The notes under the pieces: generated by a model
What the model was told of the DNA's origin: nothing
Seen by the model: the letters and a program-made list of their open reading frames with translations, nothing else
Databases searched by the model: none
Position numbers and translations under genes: made by a program
Source of the DNA: an uncultured Bacteroidales bacterium
GTDB lineage: Bacteria; Bacteroidota; Bacteroidia; Bacteroidales; VadinHA17
DNA length: 64,000 nt
NCBI GenBank assembly: GCA_963703935.1
Contig: CAVPGA010000009.1
Location: 179,528-243,527, forward strand
Direction of reading: 5' to 3'
In this document: in pieces, positions 9,667 through 47,234 of the stretch
Position numbering within the stretch: the first letter of the stretch is position 1
Layout of the letters: every line of letters begins with the position of its first letter

Positions 9667-10785
9667 ATGAGTTCACTAAGGATCATAGGATTAAGCATTT
9701 TTCTGGTAATGGTTGCCGGTTGCACTGTTGAATTCAATCCTGATTCGAATGAAAACAAGGAGCAGCTTGTGGTTGAAGGAATGATCACCGATCAGAACAG
9801 GGTAAACAGGATCAGGTTATCGAAATCCCAGTCCATTGGAAAACCTCTTGCATTTAAACCTGTAACCGGAGCCATCGTTACGGTTACCGATGAAAAAGGA
9901 ATTGTTACAACTCTCACGGAATCTCCCGCAGGTACATATTCTACAGATTCGACAGAATTCAGGGGACGGATCGGCGGCAGTTATTCGCTCAATATTAAAA
10001 TAAATAATGTGAATTATGTGACTGACTTTATTGAAATGAAACCTGTCCCGCCTATCACTTCGCTATATTATGAAAAAGTAGTTATTACCGCTTCACGGGA
10101 TACCACTGAGGTGGAAGAGGGATGCAGTATATATGTTGACAGTTATGATCCTTCCGGGAAGTGTCTTTTTTTCAGGTGGGACTATGCTGAAACCTGGGAA
10201 TACCGGATTCCCTACGCCGTTACAAACAGAGTCTGCTATGTCACTGAAAGGTCAGATGAGATCCTGATAAAAAATACCTCACTTTACAGCCAGGCCAGGG
10301 TTTCAAAATACCCGGTCCTTTTTATCTCAAATAAATCCGACAGGCTGAAAGAGAAATACAGTGTTCTGGTCAGGCAGTACTCCCTGAATGAAACAGAATA
10401 TAAGTTCTGGGAAAGGGTACAGAGTATTTCCCGGAACGTTGGTGATCTGTACGATATTACACCTATGGCAATACCGAGCAACATAAGACGTGGTGATGAT
10501 CCGAAGGAGACAGTTCTTGGTTATTTCAGCGTATCGGCAGTAACACAGAAAAGGCTGTTCATAAAAGATCATTTTTACGGATTGCCGCATTTTTTTATTT
10601 ATTGTGCAACCGATACAGCTGAAGGAGCACTGCCTGAAACGGGTCTGAATACTGAATACTGGGTGATTGAAGATTATGGGGATGAACTTCCCCCATTCTG
10701 GGTAATAACAACTTTCAGGGAGTGTGCTGACTGCACTACGAGGGGAACAGGCGTAATGCCATCGTTCTGGCTTGAGGACAGATAA
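9667..10785 (+). CDS. DUF4249-like lipoprotein (usual partner of this TonB-receptor class)
   Basis: 372-aa ORF with a lipoprotein signal (FLVMVAGC), 6 nt after the receptor gene. The family assignment is from recall of the conserved gene pairing. Confidence 0.55.
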   Translation: MSSLRIIGLSIFLVMVAGCTVEFNPDSNENKEQLVVEGMITDQNRVNRIRLSKSQSIGKPLAFKPVTGAIVTVTDEKGIVTTLTESPAGTYSTDSTEFRGRIGGSYSLNIKINNVNYVTDFIEMKPVPPITSLYYEKVVITASRDTTEVEEGCSIYVDSYDPSGKCLFFRWDYAETWEYRIPYAVTNRVCYVTERSDEILIKNTSLYSQARVSKYPVLFISNKSDRLKEKYSVLVRQYSLNETEYKFWERVQSISRNVGDLYDITPMAIPSNIRRGDDPKETVLGYFSVSAVTQKRLFIKDHFYGLPHFFIYCATDTAEGALPETGLNTEYWVIEDYGDELPPFWVITTFRECADCTTRGTGVMPSFWLEDR

Positions 10786-10793
10786 GATCAACG

Positions 10794-12549
10794 ATGAAAA
10801 GAATAGCTACACCGGTCATTATTGTTCTGTTTCTGGGTACTCTTTTTACAGCTTTCCGGCTTGAAGCTCAGGGCCTTACTAAAGTTGAACCTGCAGTAAG
10901 TCCGGAAGGATATTTACAGGCCACGGCAAGGGAACAGGTTTATTTGCAGATTGACAGGGGTATGTACATTGCAGGTGAGGATGTCTGGTTCAGCATTTAT
11001 ACCGTCGACCCGGAAACAGGAAAACTATCAGACCTGAGCGCTGTTGCATATATTGAATTACTGAATCCGTGGAATATGCCCGTTAGTTCAGTCACGGTTT
11101 CAGCTTACCGGAGGCAGGGGTGAGGGCAGTTTTCTCCTTCCCGATTCGGTCAGCTCGGGAACTTACACTATCAGGGCGTATACAAACTGGATAAAGAATT
11201 TCCTTCCTGACAATTGTTACATGCAGGATATTGATATCTGCAACCCTTTCAGGAGTTTTGACTTCTGGCGCAAAGCTGACCCTGCCGGATCATCTGATAA
11301 AAGACTTATCAATTTAACAGATAAAAAGAAGAGAACTGTAGATTTAAGGGCAGACACTATTTATAACAGACGGGAAAAAGTCACACTGAAAGTGCGAATT
11401 AGTAATGACATTGCTGATCAACCCGGAATTTCTGAAATGAGTATCGCTGTAACTCCGGCAGAAATTGCTTCAGACACCAGGTGGGAAAAATCTTTTATGA
11501 ATGTGCGAACAGATCCCAAACAATACAGCTTCGAGAGAGAAGGGCATTATCTATCCGGAAGAATAAAATACAGGGAGAGTAATTTTTCTGATTTTTCAGA
11601 TTTCCTTTTTATGTCCATCCAGGGGAAGGTAGCTGATTTTAAATATGCAGTCATAGATTCTGCAGGCCGGTTCACCTTTACCATGCCTGTAGATGATAAG
11701 ATGAGGAATCTGATCCTTCAGCCGGAAAATGCAAATAGTAACATGATACTTGAAATTGAACCATCGTTTTCATGGATCTTGCCGGAAACAAACAGTTACA
11801 GGGATTCTTTCAGTGATTCTCAGCTGGATGTGTTTTCAGACCTGAGTTTTAATTACCAGGCAGCAAAGATATATGGCAGCATAAGAAAAGAGCCTGTGAC
11901 AGATGGTGACACCGCCCTTAAAAAAAGAAGGTTTTACGGGATACCGGAGATGGAAATATTCCTGGATGATTATATCAGCCTGCCTGTGATGCAGGAGGTC
12001 TTTTTTGAACTTTTGCCCGGGATCATTCTGAGATCAAGAAAGACAGGATATGAATTAAAGATTACCAACCCTCTCACCGGAAATTTTTATGCAGAACCAC
12101 CTCTGGTAATGATAGATGGTGTGATAATCAATGACCTGACTGTTCTGGCTGACCTCAATCCGGAAATAGTTGAAAAGATTGAAGTTGTAAAAACACCTTA
12201 CCTGACCGGAGACCTCATCTTACACGGGATTGTAAATGTAATAACACGTTCGGGTGATTTCAGCAATATGACTATGCCTGATTATGCAGTTGTGCTGCCT
12301 TACAGGGTTATCGACAAACCCTGGACCTTTAATGCTCCGGACTATACTGACGAACAGAACAACCCGGGCAGGGTGCCCGACCTCAGGAATACTCTTTACT
12401 GGAATCCTTCGGTAAAAACAGATATCAAAGGTGAGGTTGAAATAGAATTCTGGACTTCGGACCTTCCAGGTAATTATACCATCAATATAAAGGGTATATC
12501 AGGAACCGGTGAAATCTTATCATTGGTTAAATCATTCATGGTCAGATAA
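10794..12549 (+). pseudogene. MG2-like N-terminus / plug-like C-terminus protein, interrupted by one frameshift
   Basis: ORF 10794-11123 (frame 3) continues in frame 1, which is open from 11065, as ...RFQLTGGRGEGSFLLPDSVSSGTYTIRAYTNW... into ORF 11221-12549. The shift lies near 11085-11097. The C-terminus contains MIDGVIINDLTVLADLNPEIVEKIEVVKTPY, which resembles a plug domain. Confidence 0.65.
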
Positions 12550-12624: not shown

Positions 12625-12755
12625 AGATTATGAAAGCCCGGAATGCTGTAAATTTGACCACTGCAATCATATTAAGTTTTTTAAACGTCTCTTAATTAAT
12701 AAGCGCCAGATGATAACCTGAATTTGATTAAATTAGTTCATAATTTTATTTCACC

Positions 12756-14250: not shown

Positions 14251-15360
14251 TTATTTAAATTTCACAGTTTTCCCTGTTCTCGCTGATTCTCTGGCGGCAT
14301 CCAGGATCCTGACCACCATTACGTTGTTCTTCAGTGAATAACTGTCATAATCAGACACTGTTATTTTTCCACGGATGACTCCCGTAAAATAAGTAAAGGG
14401 GTCTTCGTATACTGCAATGTCATCCGAAGTCACGTGCTTTTTCATTTCACCGGATGATTTCCGGTTCTTCATTCGCATGTCCTTGCTGTTCTCGGCAATG
14501 ATGTATCCGTTTTCACCATATATTTCCATATCCTTTCTGCCGAACGGCCAGTTCCACGATGCCTGTATGACGCATATACATTCCGGATATGAAACAATGA
14601 TCGTTGCATCGTCGTCCACTTTCGGATAGATCACAGGCTTAAACTGCCTGGTTACAGCCGTAACGGAAACAGGTTCCTGTCCCCGGGCAAGATATGTCAT
14701 CAGGTTTGCCCCATAACAACCAAAGTCAATGATTGCTCCTCCGCCATTTTGGACCGGATCAGTTAGCCACTCCAGGAACTCTTTACTGCATCCTATCTCC
14801 CTGGGTCCCTGGTGCCCGTCGTGTACCACCACTCTTCTTAATCCTCCCACAAAATTACTGTCATTCACCAGCTGCCAGGACTTTGCAGTGGATGGATACC
14901 AGGATGTTTCATAATCGGTGAGAAGGTGTATATTATATTTTAAAGCAAGTTCCTCCATTTTAATTGCATGTGACATGCTTGTGGCTAAGGGTTTTTCGAC
15001 CATGACATGGATCCCCCTTGGAGCACATGCCTCAACAACTGCCATATGGGCGTAGATGGAGCCGAATGCTACAACAGCTTCAGGTTTTACCTCATCAAGC
15101 ATCTTTTCAAGGTTGTCATAAATAAGCTTAATATCAAAATGAAATGACCCGGCATACCGTTCCGCAAGTTCACGATTGGGTTCATACACTCCAACAATCA
15201 CCAGATCCGGCTTCTTTGCCCTGTTCATTATAAATCCGATATGATCGTGTGTCATTCCTGCAACCGCGATACGGACAGGTTTTTCAGGGGTTTGCGCCTG
15301 GATGGTTATGACAATCAGAGGAAGGATGAGCATTAAGGTTGTTCTGTACAGACTTTTCAT
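14251..15360 (-). CDS. Secreted Gfo/Idh/MocA family oxidoreductase
   Basis: The likely start is the ATG at 15360 (MKSLYRTTLMLILPLIV..., signal peptide). It has an N-terminal Rossmann fold (RIAVAGMTHDH) and an EKP motif (VEKPLA). The reading frame is intact. Confidence 0.8.
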   Translation of the reverse strand: MKSLYRTTLMLILPLIVITIQAQTPEKPVRIAVAGMTHDHIGFIMNRAKKPDLVIVGVYEPNRELAERYAGSFHFDIKLIYDNLEKMLDEVKPEAVVAFGSIYAHMAVVEACAPRGIHVMVEKPLATSMSHAIKMEELALKYNIHLLTDYETSWYPSTAKSWQLVNDSNFVGGLRRVVVHDGHQGPREIGCSKEFLEWLTDPVQNGGGAIIDFGCYGANLMTYLARGQEPVSVTAVTRQFKPVIYPKVDDDATIIVSYPECICVIQASWNWPFGRKDMEIYGENGYIIAENSKDMRMKNRKSSGEMKKHVTSDDIAVYEDPFTYFTGVIRGKITVSDYDSYSLKNNVMVVRILDAARESARTGKTVKFK

Positions 15361-15404: not shown

Positions 15405-16418
15405 TCACAGAATTTCTGCCAGTCTTACCGGACGATTTTCCAGATATGATTTTTTAGAAGCAAGCGCGATAGCAACCGACATTAACCCGTCATTGCCTGA
15501 AACAGGGAGCTGCAAATTATTTATGACTGCATCGCAGAAGATCTTCATTTCATTGGCATAAGCCTCCAGGTACCTGTCCATGAAAAAATTCAGCGGAAGA
15601 GAACCCTGAACACTCTCACTGCTGTAATAACGATGGTTTTCAGGATAATTGTTATCGGCACAGGCCATTCCACCTGAACCAAAAATTTCAACACGCTGGT
15701 CATATCCATAAACAGCTTTGCGGCTGTTGTCAATCACTCCGATTGCACCATTTTCAAAAGTCAGTGTAATAACAGCTGTATCAACATCGCCTGCTTTACC
15801 TATTGCCGGATCGACGAGGACCGAAGCTTTGGTATAGACTTCAACAACCTCACTACCTGTTATATACCTTGCCATATCAAAATCATGGATGGTCATATCC
15901 ATGAACATTCCTCCCGAAGTGGCGCTATATTCAGCAGGCGGCGGGGCGGGATCGCGTGAGGTGATCTTAAGTATATGGGGTAATCCTATTTTTCCATCCC
16001 TGACCAGTTGTTTTATTTTCAGGAAATTCGGATCAAATCGGCGGTTAAATCCTACCATCAGTTTTACTCCGGCAGTGTCGGCGGCTTCAATAGCTCCTTT
16101 AATTACATCAAGAGAGAGATCAACAGGTTTTTCACAGAAAATATGCTTCCCGGCTCTTGCTGCATCAACAACATATTTTGCATGGGTATCGGTGGGGGAA
16201 CAGATAACAACTGCTTCAACATCCGGATGATTAATGACATCCATGTAATTAGTGAAAACAGATGTTATTCCGAAGATTTTTGCCAGTTCATTTGCACTTG
16301 CAGAATTAATATCGGCGATTGCAACCACTTCTGCCTGCGGAACACTTTGTACCAATGTTGCAATATGAACTTTGCCAATCCGTCCGGTTCCTATAACTCC
16401 AAGTTTTAGCTTTTTCAT
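15405..16418 (-). CDS. iolG: myo-Inositol 2-dehydrogenase
   Basis: 337-aa intact ORF with the motifs GVIGTGRIG, CEKP and GFNRRFDPNF...SRDPAPPP...SGGMFMDMTIHDFDMARY, which are typical of IolG. Confidence 0.85.
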   Translation of the reverse strand: MKKLKLGVIGTGRIGKVHIATLVQSVPQAEVVAIADINSASANELAKIFGITSVFTNYMDVINHPDVEAVVICSPTDTHAKYVVDAARAGKHIFCEKPVDLSLDVIKGAIEAADTAGVKLMVGFNRRFDPNFLKIKQLVRDGKIGLPHILKITSRDPAPPPAEYSATSGGMFMDMTIHDFDMARYITGSEVVEVYTKASVLVDPAIGKAGDVDTAVITLTFENGAIGVIDNSRKAVYGYDQRVEIFGSGGMACADNNYPENHRYYSSESVQGSLPLNFFMDRYLEAYANEMKIFCDAVINNLQLPVSGNDGLMSVAIALASKKSYLENRPVRLAEIL

Positions 16419-16448
16419 TTCATTAGTTTTTTATTTTAGAATTATCTT

Positions 16449-17350
16449 CTATAAGCCAAGAGATTTGATATAATCACGGTTTCGCTGTGCGCATACTTTC
16501 GGATTGCCCATTCCGGGGAGTACATCCTGTTCAACAACAATCCATCCTGAGTATTTCTGATTATTAAGTTCTTTAACAATTGAAGGGAAATCAACAGATC
16601 CTTTTCCAATTCACAGAAAACACCGTTACCAACCGATTTAAAGTAATCCCATTTCTCTGTCCTCGATTTTTCAGCCAGTATCCGGGTGACAATCTTTAAA
16701 ATGAATATGCCAGATGCGGTCCTGTTGCTTTTTCAGTACTCTCAAGAGGATCACCTCCTCCAAACATATAATGACCCATATCCAGGACCAGTCCTACAAG
16801 TGAAGGATCGGTCAATGAGAGCAATGTGTCGATTTCTCGCTGGTGTTTCAACATATCCTGCACAATGATGATGAAAAACTGTTCGCAATCCTGTCTGCGT
16901 TTTTACTTCACGTGCAACCAGATCTGCACCTTCAGCAAAGACTTTCCATTCATCATCTGTAAGTCCCATTGATGGCGTTACCCTTCCGGCATTCAGGGTG
17001 CGTTCCTTTATACTGCCATTTTCATCCGCAAGTACAATAAATGCATTTTGTAACCTGCATCTGCCATCAGCTTTGCAGTTTTTACTGCAGTTTCGGCACC
17101 GGCAGCATGCCTTTGAGCGGTCTTTCAGAAATACCGGAACAAAAGCGCCAACCATTGCAAGAGAGCGTTTATCGAGCTCTTTTTTTAATTCTGACGGAAC
17201 AGTGGGCATAAAACCCCAGTCGCCAAGTTCAGTACCCTGATAACCTGTTTCCCGGATTTCATTAAGTACCTGTTCAAAACCGGCAGCTTTGCCTTCAAGG
17301 TCAAATTCAAGTACTCCCCATGAACATGGGGCATTGGCTATTTTAATCAT
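16449..17350 (-). pseudogene. iolE: IolE-like inosose dehydratase / sugar-phosphate isomerase TIM barrel, multiply frameshifted
   Basis: The N-terminus reads MIKIANAPCSWGVLEFDLEG. I traced six frame changes by hand. One example is HAAGAETAVKTAKLMADAGYK, which is readable only in another frame. The C-terminus [34 protein letters not shown]...DYIKSLGL* is also in another frame. Confidence 0.7.
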
Positions 17351-17385
17351 ATTTATTAAGTTATTAAATATTTTTATTAAAATTA

Positions 17386-18860
17386 TTAAAATTTTCTTGT
17401 CCATTCTTCATGCCAGCGTTCAATGACGACTTTGGTCTGAGTATAAAACTCAACGGCATGCAACGATTGTCCATGAAGGTCTCCGAAGAAGCTCTCTTTC
17501 CAGCCACTGAAAGGGAAAAAAGCCATCGGAGCGGCAATACCAATGTTTATACCAATATTTCCTGCCATTGTATCGTGCCTGAATTTTCGGGCTGCAGCTC
17601 CGCTCGGGTAAAAATGCAGGCAGCATTGCCGTAACGGCTCTGGTTGATCAATTCTATCGCATCTTCAAGAGTATCGACATTGACCATGCATAAAACCGGT
17701 CCGAAATATTTCGGTTTTGTAGATTTCGCTTTCATTGCTTACATTTTGAATATTGTCGGACCAATAAAATTTCCGTCTTCACATCCTTCGTACTATTAGG
17801 TTTCGCCCATCAAGCAATAAATCTGCCCCATCATCGATCCCTTTTTGTATCAGTTTTTCAATCCGCTCCTTACTTTCTTTTGTAATAACCGGTCCCATTT
17901 CAATTCCGGGGTCATCCCGTTTCCGGTTTTTCTTGCTTTAGCGCTGTAGATAATTTTTTGATAAAACTTTCCGGAAATTTCCAGCTCTGCCGACGGTAAT
18001 AACAACTGAAGCTGCAAGGCACCTCTGTCCGGCACAACCAAAAGCACTGTCGGTAATTATTCTGACTGTAGTTTCATTATCGGCATCGGGCATAACAACA
18101 ACAGGATTTTTAGCTCCTCCCTGTGCCTGAACCCTTTTCCCATGAACGGCACCGGTCTGATAAATGTATTTTGCGACTGGAGAGGAACCGACAAAACTTA
18201 TTGCCTGAATAAGATGGATTTTCAAGAATTGCATCGACTGCTCTCTTTACCTCCATGAACCAGATTCAATACACCTTTTGGCAGGTTCAGATCCTCAAAT
18301 AGTTCAAAGATCCGTGTCATCGTCAGAGGCACTTTTTCCGAAGGTTTTACAATATATGTATTTCCGCAGGCAATGGCATAGGGCATAAACCAGAACGGAA
18401 TCATTATAGGAAAGTTGAAAGGTGAGACAGCTGCACCGACACCCAGCGGCTGCCGTATATAAAACTCATCGATGCCGGTTGCTATATCTTCGGAAAAATC
18501 ACTTTGCATGAGCTTCGGTATTCCGCATGCCACTTCAATATTTTCGATTGCACGTAACTATTTCGCCTTCGATTCAGCAAAGGTTTTACCACATTCCTGG
18601 TGCAGATTTCAGCAATTTCATCTGCATGCTCTTCCAGGATCTGCTTCATTTTAAAAAGGTATTGAATCCGTTGCGTTGCCGGAGTGTTCCTCCACGACCA
18701 CCATGCCTTTGAGCACTTTCTGCAGCGAATATATCATCTTTCGATCCTGCAGGAACTCTGGCAAGGATCTCCCCGTTTGCCGGATTAATTACATCCCGAT
18801 AGACCGGGTACTACTGTCACACCATTGTCCGTTGATATAGTTTTTTAAATTTTTTGTCAT
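17386..18860 (-). pseudogene. iolA: Methylmalonate-semialdehyde dehydrogenase (CoA-acylating), multiply frameshifted
   Basis: Fragments lie in different frames: MTKNLKNYINGQW..., [14 protein letters not shown]..., [45 protein letters not shown]...[19 protein letters not shown]..., [21 protein letters not shown] traced five frame changes in the first ~330 nt. Confidence 0.75.
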
Positions 18861-18868
18861 TTTTCTGA

Positions 18869-19046
18869 CTTTTAAATTCAGTACTTTGAGAATCCTTCGT
18901 GAATCCTTTGTGTAGCAATTCCCGAAAAGCTGGTCTTGACTAATTTACAGAGTCAATTACTTGGCTCTTTGTGGTAAAAAGAAATTAACCACAAAGGGTC
19001 ACAAAGGCTGTCACGAAGTAACACAAAGGAATACAATAAATTAAGC
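18869..19046. repeat. CTTTGTG composite-hairpin element, copy A (carries a ~53-nt internal insertion)
   Basis: It shares both arms with 51511-51640, including an identical 27-nt block, CCACAAAGGGTCACAAAGGCTGTCAC(G/C)AAG. It sits between iolD and iolA. Confidence 0.9.
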
Positions 19047-19088
19047 AATATTTATGAATTAAACAGGCTAAGTTATTGTTTTCTGTAT

Positions 19089-20952
19089 TCATAAAAAGTA
19101 CCTCTGTTTCTTTTTATTTTCAATATAGTTCTGATAGGCTTTTTTGACAGTTTCAATTTCAGAAACTTCTGCAACTGCAACTTCCCACCAGGCATAACCC
19201 GGAACACCTTTGTACAGGTCTGTTTCAATTGTGATCACAGTTGTGGTTGTATGCTTCTTTGCTTCTTTCAGGGCATTTTTCAGGGAGTTAATATCAGTGT
19301 GCTTCAATTACATGCGCTCCAAGGCTGCGGGCATTTTGTGCAAAATTTACGGGAAGGTTCTCACCTGTTAAGTGTCCGGTTTTTTCATCCCGGTAACGGT
19401 ATTTCGTTCCGAAACGCTGTGATCCGATCGATTGGGACAATGCCGCCGATACTTCCGAATCCGTTGTTATTCAGCAGGATGATAGTGACTTTGATTCCTT
19501 CCTGGATCGCTGTGACAATTTCATTATTCATCATCAGGTAATTTCCATCACCAACCATCACAAATATCTCACGGTCGGGACAGGCCATTTTTGCACCGAT
19601 TCCTGCTGCACATTCATATCCCATTGTTGAATATCCGTATTCAAGGTGAAATCCTTTCGGATCGAGTGGTCCTCCAGAGCTTATGAAGGTCGCCCGGCAG
19701 ACTTCCTGCAGCGCAAAGAACAACATCGCGGGATCCTGCAAATTCATTTACAGCTCCGACAACTTCAGCCTGGGTGACCGGTAGTGAACCGGAGACTTTA
19801 TAGAATTCGCTTACCTTATCATCCCAGGCTTTATTTAACTGGGCTGCATTCTTGCTGTATTCATCCGAGACCCTGTAATCGCAAGTAGATCCAGGAGTTC
19901 TTCAAGACATACCCTTGCATCGGAAGTAACAGGTAATGCACAATGTTTATGTGAATCAAATTCAGCAATATTTATATTGATGAATTTCACATCCGGATTC
20001 TGAAAAGCTGTTTTTGATGCAGTTGTAAAATCGCTGTAACGTGGTTCCGATATCCGATTACCAGATCTGCTTCTGTGATAATTCATTTGCTCCCGGAGTT
20101 CCTGTTAGCACCAACTGCTCCAAGGTTTGAAGGGTGGTTATAAGGCAGGGATCCCTTCCCGGCAAAGGTTTCTGCAACCGGAATTCCGGTCTGTTCAACC
20201 AATTTTTTCAATATCTCTGTAGCCTCGCTGTAGATGACTCCGCCGCCGGCAATAATGACCGGTTTTTTTGAAGTTTTATCATCTCAGCGCCTCTCTCAGG
20301 AGATAAGATCGGGTCTTGGTCTTGCAATTCTCCATATTCTTTTCCGGAATAGTTCCTCCGGGAAAGTCAAACGCTTCTGCCTGTACATCCTGGGGAAGAG
20401 CCAAGTGTGACAGCACCTGTATCGGATGGAGAAGTGAGGACTCTCATTACTTCGGGCAGGGAGGTGATTAATTGTTCGGGCCTGCTGATCCTGTCCCAGT
20501 ATTTTGAAACAGGTTTAAAACAATCATTTACCGAAATATCCTGGGAAGAAGGCGATTCAAGTTGCTGCAGGACAGGTGCTACATTCCGGCGTGCAAAAAT
20601 ATCTCCGGGTATCAAGAGCACAGGCAGCCTGTTTATTGTTGCACAGGCTGCACCGGTTATCATGTTGGTGGCACCGGGTCCGATCGATGAGATGCAGGCA
20701 AATGTTCCCAGCCGGTTTTTCATTTTGGCATATGCAATGGCAATATGCACCGAGGCCTGTTCATTCCTGGTCATAATAAACCGGAAATCGGGATTTTCCA
20801 TTAAACCCTCACCCACGCCTGCGACAATACCATGACCGAATATTCCCAGACATCCTGCAAAGAAAAGGATTTTCAATTCCATCTCGTTCAACATACTGGT
20901 TCTTCAGAAACCTGATTATTGCCTGACCGACAGTTAATCGATTAGTTTTCAT
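19089..20952 (-). pseudogene. iolD: ThDP-dependent 3D-(3,5/4)-trihydroxycyclohexane-1,2-dione acylhydrolase, multiply frameshifted
   Basis: The N-terminus reads MKTNRLTVGQAIIRFLKNQYVERDGIE and then shifts into FFAGCLGIFGHG...NEQASVHIAIAYAK. Further fragments are at 19835-20086, 19385-19747 (MVGDGNYLMMNNE, ThDP motif) and 19089-19307. Confidence 0.75.
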
Positions 20953-20988
20953 GAATTTATAGTTCTTATTTGATCAGAATCAGTATTT

Positions 20989-21999
20989 CTAAAACCCTCC
21001 GTTTGCTTCAATAAAAGTCAAAGCTTCATCGAGGGTCGGATTAAAATTTGAGCATCCTGGTTTGGTAACCAGTATTGCCCCGCAGGCATTGCCCATGCGG
21101 CAGCTTTTATACCAATCCCAGCCGTTCAGATATCCATAAATAAATCCGCTGGCAAAAGCATCACCGGCTCCCAGTACATTCACCACTCTACTGGAAAACC
21201 CGGAACATCAATCACTGGCCGTCTTTCAAATACACAGTTGATCCCTTTGCTCCCCGTTTTACAACCAGTGCCTCAATTCCAAGCTTCATGATGATTTGAT
21301 TGAAGCATCTATATCTCCCTGTATTTCAGGAGCAGAGATCTGCTGATTTCTGATCTTAATCTTAGCAGGATCACTGACATCGTTGCCAGGATCTCCTCCT
21401 CCGTGCCCAGAGGCTATTGTGCAATTCCTCAGATAGGCCCGGGCGGTGATTCCGAACGCACGGGCATCGTGCCACTGATCGGCCCGGAAATCAAGATCAA
21501 TTAATATCGGTACATTGTTTTTTACCGCTTCTTCAGCTGCAAAAAAGCCTGCTGATCTTGACGGTTCTACATTCAGGGCGGTGGCGGAAATTTCGAACAG
21601 ACGAAAGGATCCGATATTAGCATTTATTACATCATCAATATTTACTTTTGAATCGGCACAGTTTTCACGATAGTAGACGAGTGGAAAATTATCGGGCGGC
21701 TGTATGCCCAGCACAACGGCGCTGGTACGCGATCCGGGTTTTCTTGGAATAAACTTTGTTTCAACACCTTCCTTATTCAGAAAATTGAGGAGAAAATCAC
21801 CAACCTGGTCCTGACCGATACCTGTCAATAAGGCTGATTTAAGGCCCAGCCGTTTTGTTCCAACTGCGATATTCAGTGGAGAACCGCCCACATAAGCATT
21901 AAATGCCTTAATATCTACGAAGGCGGCGCCTATATTGGCGGAATAAAGATCAATAGAGGATCGTCCATAGGTAAGTACATCGTACTCTTTGTTTGTCAT
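20989..21999 (-). pseudogene. iolC: PfkB-family 5-dehydro-2-deoxygluconokinase, frameshifted
   Basis: The N-terminal ~200 aa are readable (MTNKEYDVLTYGRSSIDLYS...GGSPLNIAVG). The C-terminal PfkB motif VNVLGAGDAFASGFIYG is in a different frame (20989-21186). Confidence 0.7.
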
Positions 22000-22017
22000 A
22001 ATTAATATCCTGGTATT

Positions 22018-22897
22018 TTATTTGTCGTTCATTTCAATCGTTACCAGGGGAATTCTCGGATCCATTCCCTTCCATGTGCCATAAATCCACTTATGATCGG
22101 GATCGTCGGTGCTGGCCAGGCTCTGGTCGCTGCCGGCCAGATAATTAAGATAATAGACATTGTAGCCATGACCTGCTATCACCGGGTGGTAACCTTCCGG
22201 AATCAGGACTACATCGTTATTATGTGCCTCTGCGATCTCATCCAGGCTCCTGTCGTCAGTGTAAACCTTTTGTAAAGCAAACCCCTGAGGTTTGTCAATT
22301 TTATAAAAGTAGATCTCTTCAAGGTCTGCTTCCAGGAGTTTGCCTGTTCCAGGGTCAATTTTCCGGCTATCATGCTTATGAGCCGGGAAGGAGCTCCAGT
22401 TCCCCGAAGGAGTGTAGACTTCAACACATATCACCCGTTGCAGTGTGATCCGGGGCGGCAGGATCCGGTTAATCTGACGACTGGCGTTATCACCTCCCCT
22501 GTATTCAATTCCCATCCAACAACATCGGAAGGTGTTATGAATGTCGCCGGTGTATATTGTTCGAGCTTTGCACCAACCGCAGGCAATGTCTATCAATTCG
22601 CGCGGCAGAAATTTCAAATTTGGTATTTTGCGGAAGGTATAATGCATGAGGCAGACCACTGGAAAACATTTTTTCTTCCGTTCGATGTTTTCCAGTTCTG
22701 ATGAATTGGCAGAAAAATTTCCCCTAGTAAAACAAAAAGATATTCATTCTTTCCCGTATCACCCATCCTATTTTACCGGGTTGATTATTCGGGCGTTGAA
22801 GTTGAGATGGTCCCAACCGGCTTCCCCGGTGGGTTGGTAGATCTTCTTTTCCGGAGTTGATTCTGGATAGGAGAGGGCATTTTTTATCTTTGTTCAT
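22018..22897 (-). pseudogene. iolB: 5-Deoxy-glucuronate isomerase, frameshifted in the N-terminal third
   Basis: The C-terminal part is intact (EVYTPSGNWSSFPAHKHD...YHPVIAGHGYNVYYLNYLAG). The N-terminus from the ATG at 22897 is readable only by switching frames (…TGEAGWDHLNFNARII…). Confidence 0.7.
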
Positions 22898-22910
22898 GGA
22901 TCATTATTTA

Positions 22911-23821
22911 TTATAATATGCATTTGCACTTACCGGCACAAATAATTCCAGTGCATCCATGTATTCTTTACCAGGAACTACCAAGTCAAACTTTTCGGGT
23001 GGATCCCGGAAAAATTCCCGGTGTATCCTTGTCCATATCATTCTCATGTCAGTGGCAATATTTATTTTGCAGACACCGTATTTTATAGCGGTAAAAGTTC
23101 CTTATCATCCAGTCCTTTTGCATCTTTTTAATTTTACCTCCGGCCTCGTTAATCCGGTTAACCTCATCAACTGGTACAGCAGATGCGCCATGTAGAACAA
23201 GCGGAAACCCCGGGAGTTACTTCTGAATCTCAGCGAGAATTGTAAGCTGTAGCCTTTTGCCTCCGGAAAATTTATATGCGACCGTGACTTGTTCCTACAG
23301 CCACTGCAAGACTATCGCATCCGGTAGCTTTTTATAAATTCATCCGCCTGTTAGGATCGGTATAATGCGGCGTTCTTTCTCTTCCACCGACCGATTGTCT
23401 TCAACTCCGCTCATACAACCTAATTCAGCTTCTACCGCAATTCCTTGGCATGGGCCTTTTTGCAATCTCACTTGTGATGCGGATATTTTCATCAAATGTT
23501 TATGTGATGCATCAATCATTACTGAACGTTATAATCCTGATTCTATTGCGTTCATGCAATGATCATAATGTACCGTGGTCGAGATGCACCGTAAAAGTGA
23601 CTTCGGGATAAATTTTTTCAGCGGCTGCAATTCAAATTTTCGAGCATATCGGGGTGAAGATAATTACGCGCCACCGGAGTAAGCTGAATTATCACAGGGG
23701 CATTTTACTTTTCAGGCTCCCCTGAAAACACCATGGATCTGTTCTCCATTGAACACATTAAATGCTCCGATACCAAATTTACCGTAGGCCTGAAATATAA
23801 TTTCCGGATAGGGACTCTCAT
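22911..23821 (-). pseudogene. Class II fructose-bisphosphate-type aldolase (IolJ-like), heavily frameshifted
   Basis: The fragments AYGKFGIGAFNVFN, TFTVHLDHG, LAVAVGTSHG and LVLHGASAVP-like segments appear across three frames. No ORF longer than 80 aa remains. Confidence 0.6.
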
Positions 23822-23877
23822 TTTTATATTTGAATCTATATTTACCAACACATTTATGAAAATAATTTCTAACGCTA

Positions 23878-25694
23878 TTATTGATTTACCAGAAGAAATA
23901 ATATAAGTGCTGCAAATATTCCGCAAATACCTATCGCAGCGATATTAAATGTCATTGAGGTTTTGAATAGCCCTTTTTCTATTAAAATAGCATTGATATC
24001 CATTTTCTTTAGCATGTTATTCAGGATCATGATAAGACCAATCAAAATGAAGCCTGCTACCGGAACATAGATAGCACTCCAGGGCAAAATTTTTTAGAGG
24101 AATCACGAAAAATGAAGCTAATGATCCCTATAAGTAATGCGATTGAAACCATCTTTATCCCGGTGTTTGCAGTTTTCCTGTCTCATTTATAATCGGTCAT
24201 AATTGTTGTTTCTGAATTATGCCTTATCAGCAGACTTATTCCGATCATTACAAAAGCCAAAATTATAAATACATAACCAATCCGGAGGATAAAAGGCATT
24301 CCCGGATTTAATAATTTGAAAGAAATTCCCAATGGAATTGTAAGCAAAGCTGTCCATAATGCTGCTTTTGATGTAGCCTGCTGCCAGAATAAGTCCGCAG
24401 AAGAATATCAGAAATTCTCCCGGATAAATAAATCCTGTATATTCCTGGATATACTGGTATGCCTGATCGAGGGATCGTAACTGTGGCGCATACATGTTGA
24501 GATGACGAGGGCGGTGAAGGCTACTATCATACCGGTTCTGACCATCTGTTTTTCGGTAGCTTTTTTATTGAGAAAACCTTTATAAATATCAATAGTAAAA
24601 ATCGTTGATACACTATTGACTATTGAGCTGAGTGCAGAACTGCAGCAGCAACAATTGCAGCAAATGAGAGTCCTCTGATTCCGATAGGTACAATATTGCT
24701 TATAAGCCATGGATATGCCTCGTCTGATTTTCCAGTTTAACTCCCAGGGCATATACTGCGATTCCGGGTATAACAACCAGAAGGGGAACCAGGAGTTTTA
24801 GGTAGCCTGTGAAGGCTACCCCAAGTTGGGCTTCTTTTAAACTTTTACCTGCTAGTCCTCGCTGGATAATAAACTGGTTGAATCCCCAGAAACTAAGATT
24901 AGTCAGCCACATTGATCCCAATATTACTCCTAGCCCGGCAGATCGGAAAATGCATCTTTTTTACCGCCGGTTCCATTTGGAATCAAGAGAATCCCTTTTT
25001 CAATGACCATATGGAATTTCTCCGGAGCTTTATGTACAAGTTCGGCAAAACCGGCAAGGATTCCATTTCCACCACTAGTGCATTGAGTGCAAAAGAGGTG
25101 GTAACGAACCACCGAAAATTAATACAGCTACATTAATGACATCAGTCCATGCAACGGCCTTCATGCCGCCCCAGAGAGAGTATATTGCTGAAAAGAAAGA
25201 AAATCCGATAATTCCATAAATCAGAGGAATCCCTATTATCCGTTCCATCGCCAGCGCTCCCAGATAGATGACAGCAGTCATATTTACGAAAATATAGACC
25301 AGTATCCAGAATACTGCAAAACAGGTGCTCACTCGTTTATCATACCGTTGCGAAAGGAACTGAGGCATTGTAAAGATCCCCTTTTTAATGAAGACCGGAA
25401 GAAAATACTTGGCAACAAAAATCAGGACAATGGCAGCAATCCATTCGTAAGCAGCTATTGCCAGTCCAATTGCATATCCGGAACCGGACATGGCAATGAA
25501 ATGTTCTGCGGAAATATTGGCAGCCAGAAGTGTTGAGCCAATTGCCCACCAGGGAAGTGAACGGCCCGCCAGAAAATAGTCCTGGGAAGTTCTTTGCTCC
25601 CCTTTTTTTTTCGCGAGACCCATAATCCGACAAAAACTATGATTGGTGCATATCCTACGAAAACGATCCAGTCGATAGAAGTAAATTCTTTCAT
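23878..25694 (-). pseudogene. Sodium:solute symporter (SSS family, SGLT / myo-inositol-type), heavily frameshifted
   Basis: The N-terminus MKEFTSIDWIVFVGY... shifts inside a lysine (poly-T) run into QDYFLAGRSLPWWAIGSTLLAANISAEHF... Further fragments are FWGFNQFIIQR (24700-24921) and a C-terminal TM segment (23878-24087). Confidence 0.7.
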
Positions 25695-25886
25695 TCAGTA
25701 AGATTTCTAATTATTTTATCTGTTTAAACTTAGTAATGATTTTTCTGCAAATCTATTATTTTTACAGGTTTAACAAAATACATGAACAAATCATACTTAA
25801 TTTTACGAAGCTGATAAAACTTGAAGACGTTGCAGGAGTAGTAAATATTTGTCCTACTGCTTTTTCCAGGAACATCACTCTGAAGC

Positions 25887-28629
25887 TCAACCAATCAACT
25901 CTTTGTGATTGGCAAGGTCATTATCAGGTACAATTACTGCTACCCATTGTTCGTCAATTGACTCTGTTTTTCCATGCCATTCGAGTGTTATTTCCCTCCC
26001 TGATTTTAAATTTATCTGTTTTGAAGATCTTTTAATTGTCAGGTTGCTGGTTCTGATAGCGAAATTGTGACTTCCGTTTCCCTGAATTTTTGCTGTAATA
26101 GTAACCTCACCATTATCTGAATCCACTTTTGAAACCTCAAAGTTAAATGCGTTTTCAGGCCGGAGGTCCGGATTATATGTTCCTTGAGTTTTTCCAAGGA
26201 CGGCAGTCATCCCTTTGATAGCTCCCACAACTCCGATCCACTGGCTTACAGGATGTACCCAGACCTCCTTATAAGTCCAGGTATTTTGAACCGGCCAATA
26301 TGGTACATCACTTTCTGCACGAGTCTGGATACCAACTGGAAGAGCACCTGCAATATCACCTGAGGAGGGTGTATATAAAGGTGGAAAGTCGTATCCTTCT
26401 CCATACATTGTGCTCTGTGAAAATGGATTGCGACCTACTATCCATTCTAACTGGAGGAGGGCAAGTTTCGCCGATTCCGGGTCAGAACGAAGACGGGACG
26501 CGTTACAGAGAGATTGCGCCTGTGGTAAAATAGTCCCGAAATGTCCTCTGTAATCCATCCATACAGGGAAAATGCGAAGGTAATATCCTTTGCCTAAATG
26601 GATTCCGTTTAAAACCTGCAGCCGGAACGACTCCTGCCTGCTTTCCGGTACCTGAAGGTAATCTTTGTCCTGTATATATGGACGAAGGCAGAACCCCATA
26701 GGGTTCAGTATATCTGGCAATTGTTTTCAGGTATTCTGAATGCAATGCCACCGCAGAATACCATTTCATCCATTCGGGACGATCGGGAAACGCCTCACAG
26801 AGTTTAGTGAGTGCAGCGATAATTTCGTTCTCCCTGCCGTTATGACAATAATGAAGGATATTTCTTTTTGCCGGGCCGGTGTAAAAGAAACCGGTTAATG
26901 GCACGTCCATTTTAGTGAGTTTCCGTTGCTGCGATTCAATTAAAATTTTCGACAGTTCTATTGCTTTGCCTGCATAGCGGTTATCTCCCGTGGCATACCA
27001 CAGCTCTACCGAAGCTAATATTCCGGCAGAAGCTGCCTCATGCAAAATGTTACCTGAATCGAATGATACGCTCCAAACTGCATTTGAAGCCGTATCTTCA
27101 TCAAAAACAAGCTTTTCAACAGCGAATTGCCAATCGGCTTTAGCCATTTTAAGTGAATAATTCGCCAGACGCTGATCTCTTTCTTTCAAAACTCTGTACG
27201 CTATAGCCTCAGCAGAGGAAGCTATAAAATTGGATTTAGATGTATTTTTCGCTATTGAGGTAACATCGTCAGAATCGCCTATAATTCCATTCGTTCTTCG
27301 ACTATTTACGGATCCTTCATTGCGAAATCCATCGCCAAAGCTTGTTTTCAGAATCCAGTCGAGACCCCATTGCGCTTCTTCAAGGAGTCGTTCAAAAAGA
27401 CGGGAGTCATCTCCCCTTTTGTGCATCTGTTCTGCAAAGCTGAACATTGCATACACAGCCTCACCTGTGTTGCGGAGCCCCTGTGTAAAATCACCGGCAT
27501 CATGCCACCCGCCATTGATGACCAGGCTTTTATTACCATGAACACAGGTCCAATCGCGATGACAAGTGCCGTGTGCACCGGGAATAGAAGTGCCACATCG
27601 CTCAACATAAAAAAAATTCAATGCCTTCCAGATTGTTTGCTCCCAGATGTCAGGACCGATACGAAAGGGCTGGGTTACTATTTTGCCTGCATCTATAAAG
27701 TATGTGCCACTTTGTTGAATCTCAGAAAAATCAAGGAGCTGAAATGTTCCCAAATGTGATGTAATGGTCTGGATTGGCTTTCTTAGTACTGTTTTGCCAG
27801 ATTCCTTATCAACTATTCTGAATTCAGTGCTTTTCAGATCATTTGCTATAGCACTTTTCGGAGATTCTGATTGGTAACCTGTATGACTAAAAGATATTCT
27901 TCCCTGCCAGACCGGCCATCCCTCAATGTAATCAGGTACTACTTTTTCAAGTTCCAGATCATCAAAATAAAAAACTAAAGTATCGGTAGTTTCAGGCTCA
28001 TTTCCGGACATAACAGAAGATATTTCAAACTTTGATATTTTGTCCCGTGCAACATTACCAATTTCCCAGACTATATGATTCCATTCGTGATTACGTAAGG
28101 TAATAGTATTCTCACCCTCCTGTCCGAAGAGTGCCGGCAACTTTTCCAAACCTTCATTAAAGAGCCTGAGCTCAAGCCAGTTTTGATAAGCCCCGGGATT
28201 ATCAGGATATATCCATAGGGATATTCTGTTGAAATTACTCCAATCCTCGTTTTTGAAAATACACCATATCCCTGCATTCCCCCAGCCCCGACCGCTTTTG
28301 GGACCAGGTCCATCTAATTTTGCAGGGAACTTTACCAGAAGAGAATTACTGCCGGAATGAGGTTTTTCATTGGAGAGTCTCATTTCAGCAACCATGGATT
28401 TTGATTCAGCTATTTTAGTCGTAATCCTTGAATCTACAAGTGAAATAGCTCCAGTCGTAAAAGGTACCCAATGACCTGTGTTTTCCATATCATCCAGAAT
28501 CCTGCTTTCCAGTACTTCCTTATTAAGCCACCTGTACAATGCCGAATTCTGAACATTTACCTGCATTGGCTCCTGTCCTCTCGTTGTTAAACAAACTGCC
28601 AACATTCCAATAATTATTCTTAATGTCAT
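25887..28629 (-). pseudogene. GH9 glycoside hydrolase with N-terminal accessory domains, one frameshift
   Basis: The likely start is at 28629 (MTLRIIIGMLAVCL, signal peptide). It carries the GH9 motif NGGWHDAGD. ORFs 26503-28689 and 25887-26720 overlap and join at ...ARYTEPYGVLPSSIY / IQDKDYLQVPES. The shift is near a TATATA tract at 26670-26695. Confidence 0.7.
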
Positions 28630-28900
28630 TTTGAATGTAGTTTTTAATTCACTGAGATTATCCCGGTCAGAATGAAAGTTACCATCCAATATACTTATTT
28701 AAATTCTATTTTCATGCGTAAAATATAGCAGGATTTAGCGCCATTATTACAGTTTCATAACATCATGCAAATTGATTTATATTTTATAATTTTAATGGAA
28801 CCAATAACCTTACTATTGATGTTACTTTTAAATTTATTATTTTTCCCGGGTACCCGAGTGTAACTTTATTCAGTTAACTGACTCTAATCAATATGCAGTG

Positions 28901-36131: not shown

Positions 36132-36206
36132 CATCGGTAGTAAAGAAGAGTTGCTTAATACATTTGATTTCTTGTCCGGAAGATATTTTAAATTCAAGTA
36201 CCTTTG
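36132..36206 (+). other. Gene relic: 58-nt fragment of a paralog of the 47235-47759 gene, fused to the lead motif of the CTTTGTG element
   Basis: 36132-36189 matches 47462-47519 at 53 of 58 positions (CATCGGTAGTAAAGAAGAGTTGCTTAAT...). It is followed by AAATTCAAGTACCTTTG. Confidence 0.8.
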
Positions 36207-36209
36207 AGG

Positions 36210-37556
36210 CTAGTGTTTCATTATTGTTTCGCCGAATTTCTTTGTTACCTGTATTCCGGTTTTTTCAAGGAACCGGGTAGGTAATTCACCTCCGGCAAAG
36301 ATATATACGAGATCATTTTTCAAGCTTAAATTCCGGCCATCAGACCCAGAAGAAAGAGTTACGCTTTCATCCTCAATGTTAATGAGACTTGTATTAAACC
36401 TTAACTCTATCTTCCCTTCGGCGGCTGCTTTGTTAATAGCAATGTTGTTAACAGGTTTGATACGGTTAAAAACCTCATTTCTGTAGGAAATTGTTACATG
36501 ATTTTCATCAGCAAGCAGCAATGCAGCTTCAATTGCGGAATCGCCACCTCCCACAATAAGTATATTATTACCCCTGATACCCTCAGGTTCGAGGAGCCGG
36601 TAAGCTACCTTTTCCTTTAATTCGCCAGGTACATTCAGCTTACGCGGGCTTCCGCGCCTTCCTATTGCAAGCAGAACAGAGGCGGTTTTGTAAATCTGAC
36701 TGTCATATGTGATCACCTCGATATGAGTGTTCAATCTGATAATCGATTCCACTTTGCAGTTTTCCCGGACAGGAATATTGTATTTCGACAGGACGGATTT
36801 CCAAAGATCGAGAAGAACTGCCTTGGTTGTCTGATATAGTTTTATTTTGCCCATGAGCGACAGATACATCGGTGAAGTCATCACTACTTTCTTGCGGGGA
36901 TATGTAAAGACTGTTCCTCCGAGGGAATCCTGTTCAAGAAGGAGGAATCTGACATCATTCTTTTTTGCTGTAAGCGATGCTGAAATGCCTGCCGGACCGG
37001 CACCAATTATAATGATATCATATTCCACACCATTTCCCTTTTTCAGCGATCTGATAATATTTTCAGTAGCTTGTCTTCCCTGTTCGACGGCATTTTTTAT
37101 TAGCCCCATTCCACCTAGTTCTCCGGCAATGAATATGCCAGGGACATTGGTTTCAAAGGTTTTGCTGACATGAGGCAGGTCGACACCCCGTTTCTCGGTG
37201 CCGATCTTTAAGGAGATCGCGTGAGTGGGACAGGCATGGAAACATGCTCCGTGACCTATACACCGGGCAGCATTTATAATTACTGCTTTTCCATGTTTTA
37301 ATCCCAATATGTCTTTTTCAACACATGCATTTACACATGCACCTGTACCGATGCAACTGTTAATGTCGATATGCGGATATAGTGAAACCGGCTCATGAAG
37401 ACCATTTTCCAGAGCTTTTTCAATCTTCTCATCAGTAATTTTTGATTGTTTTGCCTTTCTGCGGATGTAAAGAATTATCACCCAGGAACTCAGGAATGCT
37501 GCAAAGCAATAAAACAATATTTTAAAAATTGTATGGTCCATAACTAAAAGTTCCAT
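36210..37556 (-). CDS. Membrane-anchored Fe-S flavoprotein: ferredoxin-like domain plus FAD/NAD(P)-binding oxidoreductase
   Basis: 448-aa ORF. It has an N-terminal TM helix followed by RRKAKQSK. It has two cysteine motifs, CIGTGACVNAC and CIGHGACFHACP. It has two dinucleotide-binding motifs, IIIGAGPAG and ILIVGGGDSA. Confidence 0.75.
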   Translation of the reverse strand: MELLVMDHTIFKILFYCFAAFLSSWVIILYIRRKAKQSKITDEKIEKALENGLHEPVSLYPHIDINSCIGTGACVNACVEKDILGLKHGKAVIINAARCIGHGACFHACPTHAISLKIGTEKRGVDLPHVSKTFETNVPGIFIAGELGGMGLIKNAVEQGRQATENIIRSLKKGNGVEYDIIIIGAGPAGISASLTAKKNDVRFLLLEQDSLGGTVFTYPRKKVVMTSPMYLSLMGKIKLYQTTKAVLLDLWKSVLSKYNIPVRENCKVESIIRLNTHIEVITYDSQIYKTASVLLAIGRRGSPRKLNVPGELKEKVAYRLLEPEGIRGNNILIVGGGDSAIEAALLLADENHVTISYRNEVFNRIKPVNNIAINKAAAEGKIELRFNTSLINIEDESVTLSSGSDGRNLSLKNDLVYIFAGGELPTRFLEKTGIQVTKKFGETIMKH

Positions 37557-38413
37557 GCATATCCCAGGGCTGCAATTATGATCACATGTATAATCAGAAA
37601 TATCAGCATTACAATGGTAATCGGAAAATGAAAAACATGCCAGTAGCGGAAAAGGTTTTTCATCCTTTCAAGCCGCTCCAGAATTCTCTCAAGTCTTATA
37701 TCATTCTTAACAAGAGCCATTATCTGCAAGCGTTTGGACCGTGACAATTTAATTTGCCTGAGAAAGCTGTTTATTTTGTAGATGGTTTTCCTGTCATCCC
37801 TTGACTTCTTCAAAAACCGGGGATGCCTGTTTTCAACGTAAATTACTGATCTCTTTTCAATTGAAAATGAAATGTATTTAAAGGTTTCTTCATCCATATT
37901 GTAGGAATCCCTGATCTCTGAAAGAATGTCATTTCGAATTTCCCTTACCTCTTTAAGGTCAAGCTCCCGTCCTTCGATTGTCCTGGGGATCTGAAGATAA
38001 ATGAACCGACCGGCTACTCCGCTTACCACGGCTGTGACCATACACCAGAAGCTGAAACCAGCCACACCGCCTAGCTTGAAAGATGTATGAAATACAACCA
38101 TTATTGTTCCCAGGATACACATGAAGATATGAAACTCAAGCCAGTACATCAGTTCTCCAAGCCGGTGTAAAAAACGATATCTTTTCCTTGCCATATATAA
38201 TCCAACACCGCTGATAATACAAACAGATCCCATCATTCCAATACTGTGACCAACAGAACCACTTGGTTTAAGACTTTTATTATCCGGGTGATAAAACCTG
38301 TCCTCAAGGTTGACTACATAATACGAACGGCCATAATATGCCCCGATAATGGTGACAATTAAAATTACAGCAACAAACATGCTTAGAAAAGTAAAATGAG
38401 CACCTTTGGACAT
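37544..38413 (-). CDS. Five-TM membrane protein, putative di-heme cytochrome b
   Basis: 289-aa ORF whose 3' end overlaps the downstream flavoprotein gene by 13 nt. H-x13-H motifs lie in TM3 (HIFMCILGTIMVVFH) and TM5 (HFPITIVMLIFLIIH). A Lys/Arg/Glu-rich loop of ~110 aa lies between TM4 and TM5. Confidence 0.6.
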   Translation of the reverse strand: MSKGAHFTFLSMFVAVILIVTIIGAYYGRSYYVVNLEDRFYHPDNKSLKPSGSVGHSIGMMGSVCIISGVGLYMARKRYRFLHRLGELMYWLEFHIFMCILGTIMVVFHTSFKLGGVAGFSFWCMVTAVVSGVAGRFIYLQIPRTIEGRELDLKEVREIRNDILSEIRDSYNMDEETFKYISFSIEKRSVIYVENRHPRFLKKSRDDRKTIYKINSFLRQIKLSRSKRLQIMALVKNDIRLERILERLERMKNLFRYWHVFHFPITIVMLIFLIIHVIIIAALGYAWNF

Positions 38414-38749
38414 CAGGTTAATGTTTGAATTAAAACTGTCTTAATCCTCTGTTTTGACCAATGTCTGCCAACAGTGTCTTATTCTTATACCTGAACAGAG
38501 TCAGGTTATTTCAATTTCAGATGATTTCCGGATAATTTTAAAACAGTTTAAGAGAATGGATATTGCGCCCGGGGTTATGCTAATTATCATGACTTAGTTG
38601 AAACCTGTTCAGGTCGAAACTACCTGTTAAGCTGCCGGACCTCAGGTGGCCTTCCAGATTTGCCATTACGGACAGAATCGGAGTTGGTATATGGCTTGTT
38701 CCCGGATTTGAAGAAGAATTTAAAATTGAAATGAATGAAGATAAATCTA

Positions 38750-39653: not shown

Positions 39654-39667
39654 TGTTTCTAAATCCC

Positions 39668-41081: not shown

Positions 41082-41108
41082 AGCTATCAGGTAAAAAATA
41101 ATAAATAT

Positions 41109-46961: not shown

Positions 46962-47234
46962 TTTCAGGTATAATTAGTCCATGCCAGGCATTAATCAAAG
47001 AGGCTGGACGGAAATTGACAAATTAAATCCATTCTTTTAATAGAATCAAGTACAATTTTGTCACAAAGGTCATGAATTAAATAATAATTGGTTAAAATCA
47101 CTTTGGGATTTCCAACTTTGTACACACATAATAGTCATTTTCAAAATATACTTGACTGTGATTGTTTCATCTCGTAACTTACATGATATAAATGATCCTT
47201 TAAAAATTCTTTCCCATTTAGAAATTACAATCCT

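Follow-up and report, generated by a model that had tools for sequence, protein, structure and literature searches.

Dense frameshifts in the inositol catabolic operon of an uncultured Bacteroidales bacterium are very probably long-read consensus errors over a divergent iol allele

The iol operon of Bacillus subtilis comprises iolA, iolB, iolC, iolD, iolE, and iolG together with a class II aldolase and a transporter. The same set of genes is present in an uncultured Bacteroidales bacterium (GenBank assembly GCA_963703935.1, contig CAVPGA010000009.1), of which a stretch of 64,000 nt (positions 179,528 to 243,527, forward strand) was analyzed and is referred to as the window; all coordinates given below refer to it. 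Here, the minus-strand operon (16452–25694) runs from an SSS-family transporter through the class II aldolase, iolB, iolC, iolD, iolA, and iolE, followed by iolG. Compared with B. subtilis, the transporter belongs to the SSS family and not to the MFS family like IolT, the genes stand in another order, and an iolR gene adjoining the operon was not identified. A preliminary description of this DNA, made from the letters alone, had stated that these seven consecutive genes can be read only by repeatedly switching frame, and indeed the open reading frames (ORFs) are shattered over 16449–25694, with the gene order as described and each gene recoverable at full length by alignment.

Two described phenomena resemble such a locus. 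In bacterial pseudogene decay, e.g., in host-restricted pathogens, consecutive genes of a pathway are likewise frameshifted while their neighbours stay intact. Indel errors of long-read sequencing (Nanopore or PacBio continuous long reads, CLR) likewise consist of 1-nt indels with almost no substitution errors, and corrections by ±1 nt restore the genes; in metagenomes, they are most severe where depth is low or strains are mixed. Unpolished MinION assemblies contained 474 indels per 100 kb compared with fewer than 2 in short-read assemblies (PMC6487183), and long-read indel errors are described as pseudogenising genes (PMC12007338). Based on the analyses presented here, we consider it very probable that the approximately 69 frame breaks of the operon are not mutations of the organism but errors in the consensus of a metagenome assembled from long reads, most likely of Nanopore and Flye type, and that they lie over a genuine divergent iol allele.

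Each of the seven broken genes was recovered end to end by frameshift-aware protein-to-DNA alignment. We used a dynamic programme of our own in place of blastx/tblastn, whose high-scoring segment pairs run through frameshifts, so that their resolution was too coarse. Three references were applied, namely the proteins of locus L002 from a Nanopore metagenome-assembled genome (MAG), a profile of 20–102 intact homologues, and the proteins of a conspecific contig (locus L163, see below), and all three agreed on the events per iol gene. For calibration, the programme was run on 570 copies of genes taken from short-read-type contigs (57–90% identity), where it made four interior frameshift calls in 683 kb. 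Reference-free tracking of the frame by codon-usage log-odds gave too little signal. The genes of the operon and the two genes following it are:

23889–25694, minus strand: SSS-family Na+/solute symporter, candidate inositol transporter, 603 codons, the frame of which is broken by 11 indels of 1 nt (7 deletions, 4 insertions); the homologue at L163:935-2746 matches TIGR00813/PF00474.
22914–23821, minus strand: iolJ-like gene for a class II ketose-bisphosphate aldolase, about 300 codons, in which 14 indels break the frame and 3 in-frame stops are apparent; aligned to a 304-aa conspecific protein, the homologue matching TIGR00167/PF01116.
22021–22897, minus strand: iolB (5-deoxy-glucuronate isomerase), with 8 events that break the frame, three of them 2-nt deficits; the homologue passes TIGR04378.
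20992–21999, minus strand: iolC (5-dehydro-2-deoxygluconokinase), 337 codons, with 5 indels, all within the C-terminal 140 codons; the homologue passes TIGR04382.
19092–21005, minus strand: iolD (trihydroxycyclohexane-1,2-dione, THcHDO, acylhydrolase), with 13 indels; the frame-corrected product reaches 899 bits against the equivalog model TIGR04377 (cut-off 715).
17389–18860, minus strand: iolA (CoA-acylating methylmalonate-semialdehyde dehydrogenase, MMSDH), with 11–12 indels; the homologue passes TIGR01722.
16452–17350, minus strand: iolE (inosose dehydratase), 299 codons, with 6 indels (4 insertions, 2 deletions); TIGR04379 is the top match but stays under its cut-off (217 vs 290 bits).
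15405–16418, minus strand: iolG (inositol 2-dehydrogenase), intact, 97.1% identical to the conspecific copy at the nucleotide level and above the cut-off of TIGR04380.
14251–15360, minus strand: Gfo/Idh/MocA oxidoreductase, intact, 98.3% identical to the conspecific copy at the nucleotide level.

The assignment to the iol clusters is based on the NCBIfam equivalog models for iolB, iolC, iolD, iolG, and iolA, all of which scored above cut-off with either the conspecific or the corrected proteins. Many Bacteroidales/Prolixibacteraceae MAGs encode a protein 80–90% identical to the intact iolG product, with the same operon upstream, and the same arrangement was found in about 70 loci of these groups.

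Altogether, we counted 68–69 frame-breaking events in 9243 nt, i.e., one per 134 nt (about 0.75%, or about 750 per 100 kb). Single-nucleotide deletions (about 33) and insertions (about 29) were balanced, with a few 2-nt events in addition. Six switches were found in iolE, as many as previously traced, and the five reported for the first ~330 nt of iolA correspond to three single indels and one pair of a G deletion and an A insertion. This pair explains the apparent in-frame TAG at 18560, as had been proposed, the A insertion lying 8 nt downstream: after one G is restored and one A removed, GCG-AAA-TAG-TTA-CGT becomes GCG-GAA-ATA-GTT-CGT. In total, four or five apparent in-frame stops stand in contexts best fitted by two nearby compensating indels, among them the three of the aldolase, which look like unresolved indel pairs. 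The block lacks any long minus-strand ORF; with regard to the statement that neither the aldolase nor the transporter has a long ORF left, however, the transporter retains ORFs of 182 and 122 aa. Large deletions or clear nonsense substitutions had not been noticed, and we saw none that was convincing either; all seven iol genes keep their full length, with no deletional bias, no multi-base deletions, and no insertion sequence (IS) elements. In agreement with the earlier description, no events were detected in iolG and the Gfo/Idh/MocA gene, which at the rate of the block has a probability of about 1e-7, and the ORFs between about 48.9 and 64 kb look normal.

The comparison of substitution and indel rates with intact homologues, suggested as a check in the preliminary description, revealed an indel-only spectrum. 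Of the 1041 codons without variation among the 20–102 intact homologues (±3 codons at every junction were left out), 5 are changed in the window, compared with about 4.5 (summed over genes) for intact loci, which is background; three of these five codons adjoin apparent stops that are best read as unresolved indel pairs. In simulations, a ratio of substitutions to indels of 0.5 led to about 9 additional invariant-site matches lost and about 1.4 additional stops, a ratio of 1 to about 18 and 3, a ratio of 5 to about 87 and 12, and a ratio of 10 to about 166 and 22, respectively. Since the observed number does not exceed background, the ratio is below about 0.5, so that indels are at least twice as frequent as unselected substitutions, and probably far more. 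In mutation-accumulation studies, spontaneous mutation of bacteria yields about 10 substitutions per indel, and the ratio of the block is the reverse of this. This bears on a real and very recent pseudogenisation, i.e., a burst of ±1 frameshifts caused by slippage or a frameshift-specific mutator, with iolG and the neighbouring dehydrogenase gene kept by selection. All seven pathway genes being hit and the two dehydrogenases being spared would fit such a loss, and a foreign-looking allele might never have functioned in this host; the spectrum of changes does not fit, as it lacks the substitutions as well as multi-base deletions and IS insertions. Also unlike bacterial pseudogene decay, there is no excess of nonsynonymous or nonsense changes, and the genes carry about 10 frameshifts each where one suffices.

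The position of the indels points in the same direction. Most of the switches had been reported to lie in short homopolymer runs, a claim that was not borne out: placement could be confined to a defined interval for 58 events, of which 23 touch a run of at least 3 nt, compared with 27.5 ± 3.5 by random placement, and 12 touch runs of at least 4 nt, compared with 12.6 ± 2.9 expected. A 91%-identical relative allowed placement at the nucleotide level for iolE and the 3′ portion of iolA, and the indels there are mostly outside of repeats, e.g., AAAG[A]GAGC and CCCG[-T]AGCG. Natural ±1 indels, by contrast, concentrate at mononucleotide runs (PMC10710837). Because the indels are not enriched at homopolymers, the slippage reading is unsupported, and the locus also does not resemble a phase-variable contingency locus, where indels fall into homopolymer or simple-sequence tracts. 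Thus, of the two explanations originally offered, the slippage-driven recent loss of inositol catabolism finds neither an association with homopolymers beyond chance nor a substitution signal of relaxed selection. Together with the frameshifts in unrelated genes of the window, whose density follows divergence and not the pathway, and with the same damage being common in Nanopore-type relatives and nearly absent in short-read ones (both described below), this makes recent pseudogenisation very unlikely.

For comparison of the orthologous locus, likewise suggested beforehand, we used a 228-kb ENA contig, ERZ25039502:contig_83877, to which protein searches and contig look-ups had led and which contains loci L161 and L163. 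This contig is collinear with the window from 5.5 to 51 kb and, because it is 97–99% identical over most of the collinear stretch, is judged by sequence to represent the same species. Its iol operon is nearly intact, iolD alone being split, by three frameshifts. Both this contig and a short-read contig of a sister species carry intact iolE, iolA, iolC, iolB, aldolase, and SSS genes, with an intact 299-aa iolE in L163 as well as in L164, the short-read locus. The comparison thus returned open frames with the exception of iolD, but the allele found there diverges from that of the window, as delimited by the following feature:

16190–26720, no strand: block divergent from the conspecific contig, determined by MAFFT alignment to L163 in 250-nt bins and coinciding with the frameshift-dense stretch.

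Identity to the conspecific contig is about 98% up to about 16.19 kb, 90–92% from 16.2 to 18.25 kb, 68–82% from 18.25 to 25.25 kb, 85–93% from 25.25 to 26.64 kb, and again 97–98% from 27.55 kb onwards. At the left edge (about 16190), mismatches rise inside the first ~230 nt (5′ end) of iolG; the sharp boundary noted earlier at 16.4 kb matches this switch of identity from about 98% to 70–92%. The right edge lies between 26.64 and 27.55 kb inside a GH9 gene, whose product is 98.2% identical to the conspecific protein over the N-terminal 338 aa and 91.8% over the C-terminal 255 aa.

Between 63 and 83% of the differences from the conspecific contig fall at third codon positions, and they are evenly spread, which argues that the divergence is evolutionary and not noise. 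After correction, the proteins are 72–92% identical to their homologues. The block is thus a genuine, selectively maintained, foreign-looking iol allele, neither noise nor decay. An old pseudogene, in which the 8–30% divergence itself reflects neutral decay accompanied by indels, would account for the coincidence of nucleotide divergence and frameshifts, and the ratio, with about 2000 substitutions to about 69 indels, would look natural. Neutral decay, however, does not respect codon position or conserved residues: it is contradicted by the third-position bias, the invariant residues at background (5/1041), the similarity of the corrected proteins to their homologues, and the corrected iolD passing its equivalog cut-off. 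Moreover, 20% neutral divergence would give more than 100 stop codons, and no truncated remnants were seen. This explanation is refuted by the tests of codon position and of invariant sites and by the scarcity of stops, and we attach a practically negligible probability to it.

As to the origin of the divergent allele, the conspecific contig ranks 12th to 21st among the relatives of the window for SSS, iolB, and iolD, with other lineages being closer. In the core of the block, no sampled sequence exceeds about 85% nucleotide or 90% amino acid identity. With the corrected SSS protein as a query for a near-identical intact copy of this allele, the best database match had 90% amino acid identity, and scans of genome and metagenome contigs seeded with iolG returned relatives at no more than 90% amino acid identity. 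Megablast of the block against plasmids resulted in no match. A fine-scale mosaic, in which polishing would have mixed known haplotypes, was considered and rejected, as the mismatches to the conspecific contig are evenly spread in 16.2–18.25 kb (variance/mean 0.67) and no locus exceeds 85% nucleotide identity in the block core. These data suggest that a putative recombinational replacement of the operon (about 10 kb) took place, if the block is not an assembly chimera. In the latter case, the 10-kb block would stem from a rarer related organism, spliced in via the conserved iol genes and covered by one or few reads. The low rank of the conspecific contig for three of the genes speaks for this, many related Bacteroidales carrying the operon co-occur in single samples of the Microflora Danica project (several MAGs per sample), and a chimera would account for the divergence and the poor consensus together. 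It requires, though, that the assembly returned to one and the same genome at two exact points, inside iolG and inside GH9, and the junction zones are only 85–93% identical, which is little for joining by overlap. The genes are arranged exactly as in the conspecific operon, and a second divergent stretch at 38.7–42.5 kb behaves alike, suggesting ordinary strain-level mosaicism. Since gene order is conserved and the 38.7–42.5 kb patch exists, strain-level recombination is more likely, and we regard a chimera as unlikely; it is an artefact reading as well and differs from the favoured one only in the linkage between allele and flanks.

With regard to the sequencing technology, two proteins of the window were found at 100% identity on one metagenomic contig of 1,435,148 bp, and a contig of 1.43 Mb from an uncultured Bacteroidales bacterium implies a long-read assembly. 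Exact look-ups with four proteins, among them those of iolG, a 910-aa ORF, and a fucosidase gene, returned no entry. In the same iol genes, contigs with Flye-style names, from the Nanopore data of Microflora Danica and the ENA assemblies belonging to that project, showed 43 interior frameshift calls in 101 kb, compared with the four calls in 683 kb of the short-read-type contigs (about 70-fold fewer) and none in 69 kb of other multi-Mb contigs. Microflora Danica assemblies are Nanopore-only; they were produced by Flye (--meta --nano-hq), followed by a single Medaka round and no short-read polishing (PMC12313526). The resemblance to long-read indel errors extends to the same damage being present in related Nanopore MAGs (L066, L163, L161, L008, and others) but absent from short-read contigs, and to the rate of 0.75%, which is comparable to 0.47% for unpolished MinION assemblies (PMC6487183).

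Two of these relatives may be described further. In L066 (5600–11012; Nanopore MAG MFD00905.bin.1.144, a related species), 25 frameshifts, 21 of them 1-nt insertions, are distributed over iolD, iolA, iolE, and iolG, and its SSS, iolB, and iolC genes are clean, a similarly patchy damage in the same operon. In L002 (2636–3641), the aldolase ORF has 250 aa compared with 304 aa in the conspecific contig, with a 250-nt gap after the transporter; the 5′ end of this aldolase gene probably carries a frameshift of its own.

Outside of the operon, with L162, a third related contig, as a reference beside the conspecific ones, further frame breaks were located in unrelated genes:

10731–12546, plus strand: hypothetical 605-aa gene with 3 indels within 260 nt (10827, 10960, 11085) in a region otherwise clean and 97.7% identical.
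25887–28689, minus strand: GH9 glycoside hydrolase, present as two overlapping ORFs, with one frameshift at 26643–26720.
33176: DUF5916 gene with 1 frameshift.
38753–42449, minus strand: second, weaker error-rich stretch with 9 frameshifts in the following three genes.
38.75–39.65 kb, minus strand: esterase with 5 frameshifts.
39.67–41.08 kb, minus strand: phospholipase-B-family/C45 gene with 2 frameshifts.
41.1–42.45 kb, minus strand: another Gfo/Idh/MocA gene with 2 frameshifts.

Between 38.75 and 42.45 kb, the window is 89–96% and not 98% identical to two other assemblies, which are 97.7% identical to each other. In a comparison of 30 genes, the density of frameshifts was correlated with how far each gene diverges from the conspecific references at the nucleotide level (Spearman rho 0.87, p = 4e-10): genes at least 96.5% identical have 0.37 frameshifts per kb, partly owing to breaks of the references themselves, those at 88–96.5% have 2.35, and those below 88% have 7.9. 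Thus, frameshift density tracks divergence and not membership of the pathway. Real frameshifts, with an iol allele of about 10 kb imported from another lineage and later acquiring about 69 localised ±1 indels outside of homopolymers with virtually no substitutions, are very unlikely; if true, it would imply an undescribed region-targeted frameshift-mutagenic process, e.g., one acting on mismatch-rich recombination tracts.

Consensus errors over a divergent haplotype could have arisen as follows. The contig would be a strain-mosaic consensus, the flanks of which are common to all strains (about 98% alike), deeply covered, and well polished. In the block, the assembler may have followed a divergent haplotype carried by few reads in the sample, and reads of the commoner haplotype would either be unable to support this allele or disturb its polishing. 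The draft would then be left near raw-read quality in the block, where small indels dominate the residual errors. On this account, the sharp left edge reflects a switch of haplotype and not a gene boundary, the dehydrogenases are intact because they lie outside the badly supported block, and the weaker patch at 38.7–42.5 kb as well as similar damage in other Nanopore assemblies of the clade would follow from the same account.

The alternative originally proposed beside gene loss, namely that part of a long-read assembly was left unpolished or poorly covered, is upheld by the indel-only spectrum, the 1.43-Mb contig, the association with Nanopore assemblies, and the frameshifts in unrelated genes. 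Several points weigh against it. Low or mixed read support in the block was deduced and not observed. Unlike typical long-read errors, the indels are mainly confined to a block of 9–10 kb with a sharp edge that coincides with a divergent allele, and they show no homopolymer bias. Residual errors in a well-covered Nanopore consensus usually have this bias, so that near-raw-read quality must be assumed. The searched collections contain no near-identical intact copy of the divergent allele against which the indels of its most divergent part could be compared base by base. Finally, 1.1 kb of the block (21411–22517) are free of indels although as divergent as their neighbours (P about 3e-4 at the block rate); error density in the block is patchy and not set by divergence alone.

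The organism most probably has a working inositol operon. Taken at face value, the MAG would indicate that inositol catabolism was lost, and its annotation would list seven 'pseudogenes' as well as some 40 short ORFs that are spurious, which calls for caution with pseudogene calls in Nanopore-only MAGs. A diagnostic for such MAGs may be a frameshift density that climbs where the assembled haplotype leaves the common allele of the species, strain-variable (accessory or recombined) regions being those with the least trustworthy gene calls in long-read MAGs. The real biology is likely modest, namely conspecific Bacteroidales strains with iol alleles differing by up to 30%.

Within the operon, the spacer between iolD and iolA (18861–19091) is about 200 nt longer than that of the conspecific contig (28 nt) and contains repeated CTTTGTG-like motifs, its most notable part being 18985–19077. 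A 93-nt piece matches L008 at another place (12655–12746, 81% identity) and may represent a small repeated intergenic element. An Rfam scan of the window gave no matches.

Neither the window nor the conspecific assembly is clean. The latter has breaks of its own in L161 at 11309 and 11971 (one each in the phospholipase-B-like and esterase genes) and in iolD (L163 5665–7527), and at about 15720–16150 and 17700 of L163 a DUF4249 gene and a TonB-dependent receptor gene are split, the window copies of which are intact.

Two further segments of the window differ in length from the related contigs. The first, 36132–38748, is absent from L161 and L162, where 36132 is joined directly to about 38748, and is a strain-specific insertion or deletion; it encodes a 448-aa 4Fe-4S/pyridine-nucleotide-disulphide oxidoreductase (36210–37556) and a 289-aa protein without a Pfam match (37544–38413). 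The second, about 810 nt (47099–47908), corresponds to about 33 nt in L161 and lies in the part of the window with the lowest G+C content (46001–48000; 0.349 vs about 0.42), which contains a 174-aa ORF (47235–47759) without a Pfam match.

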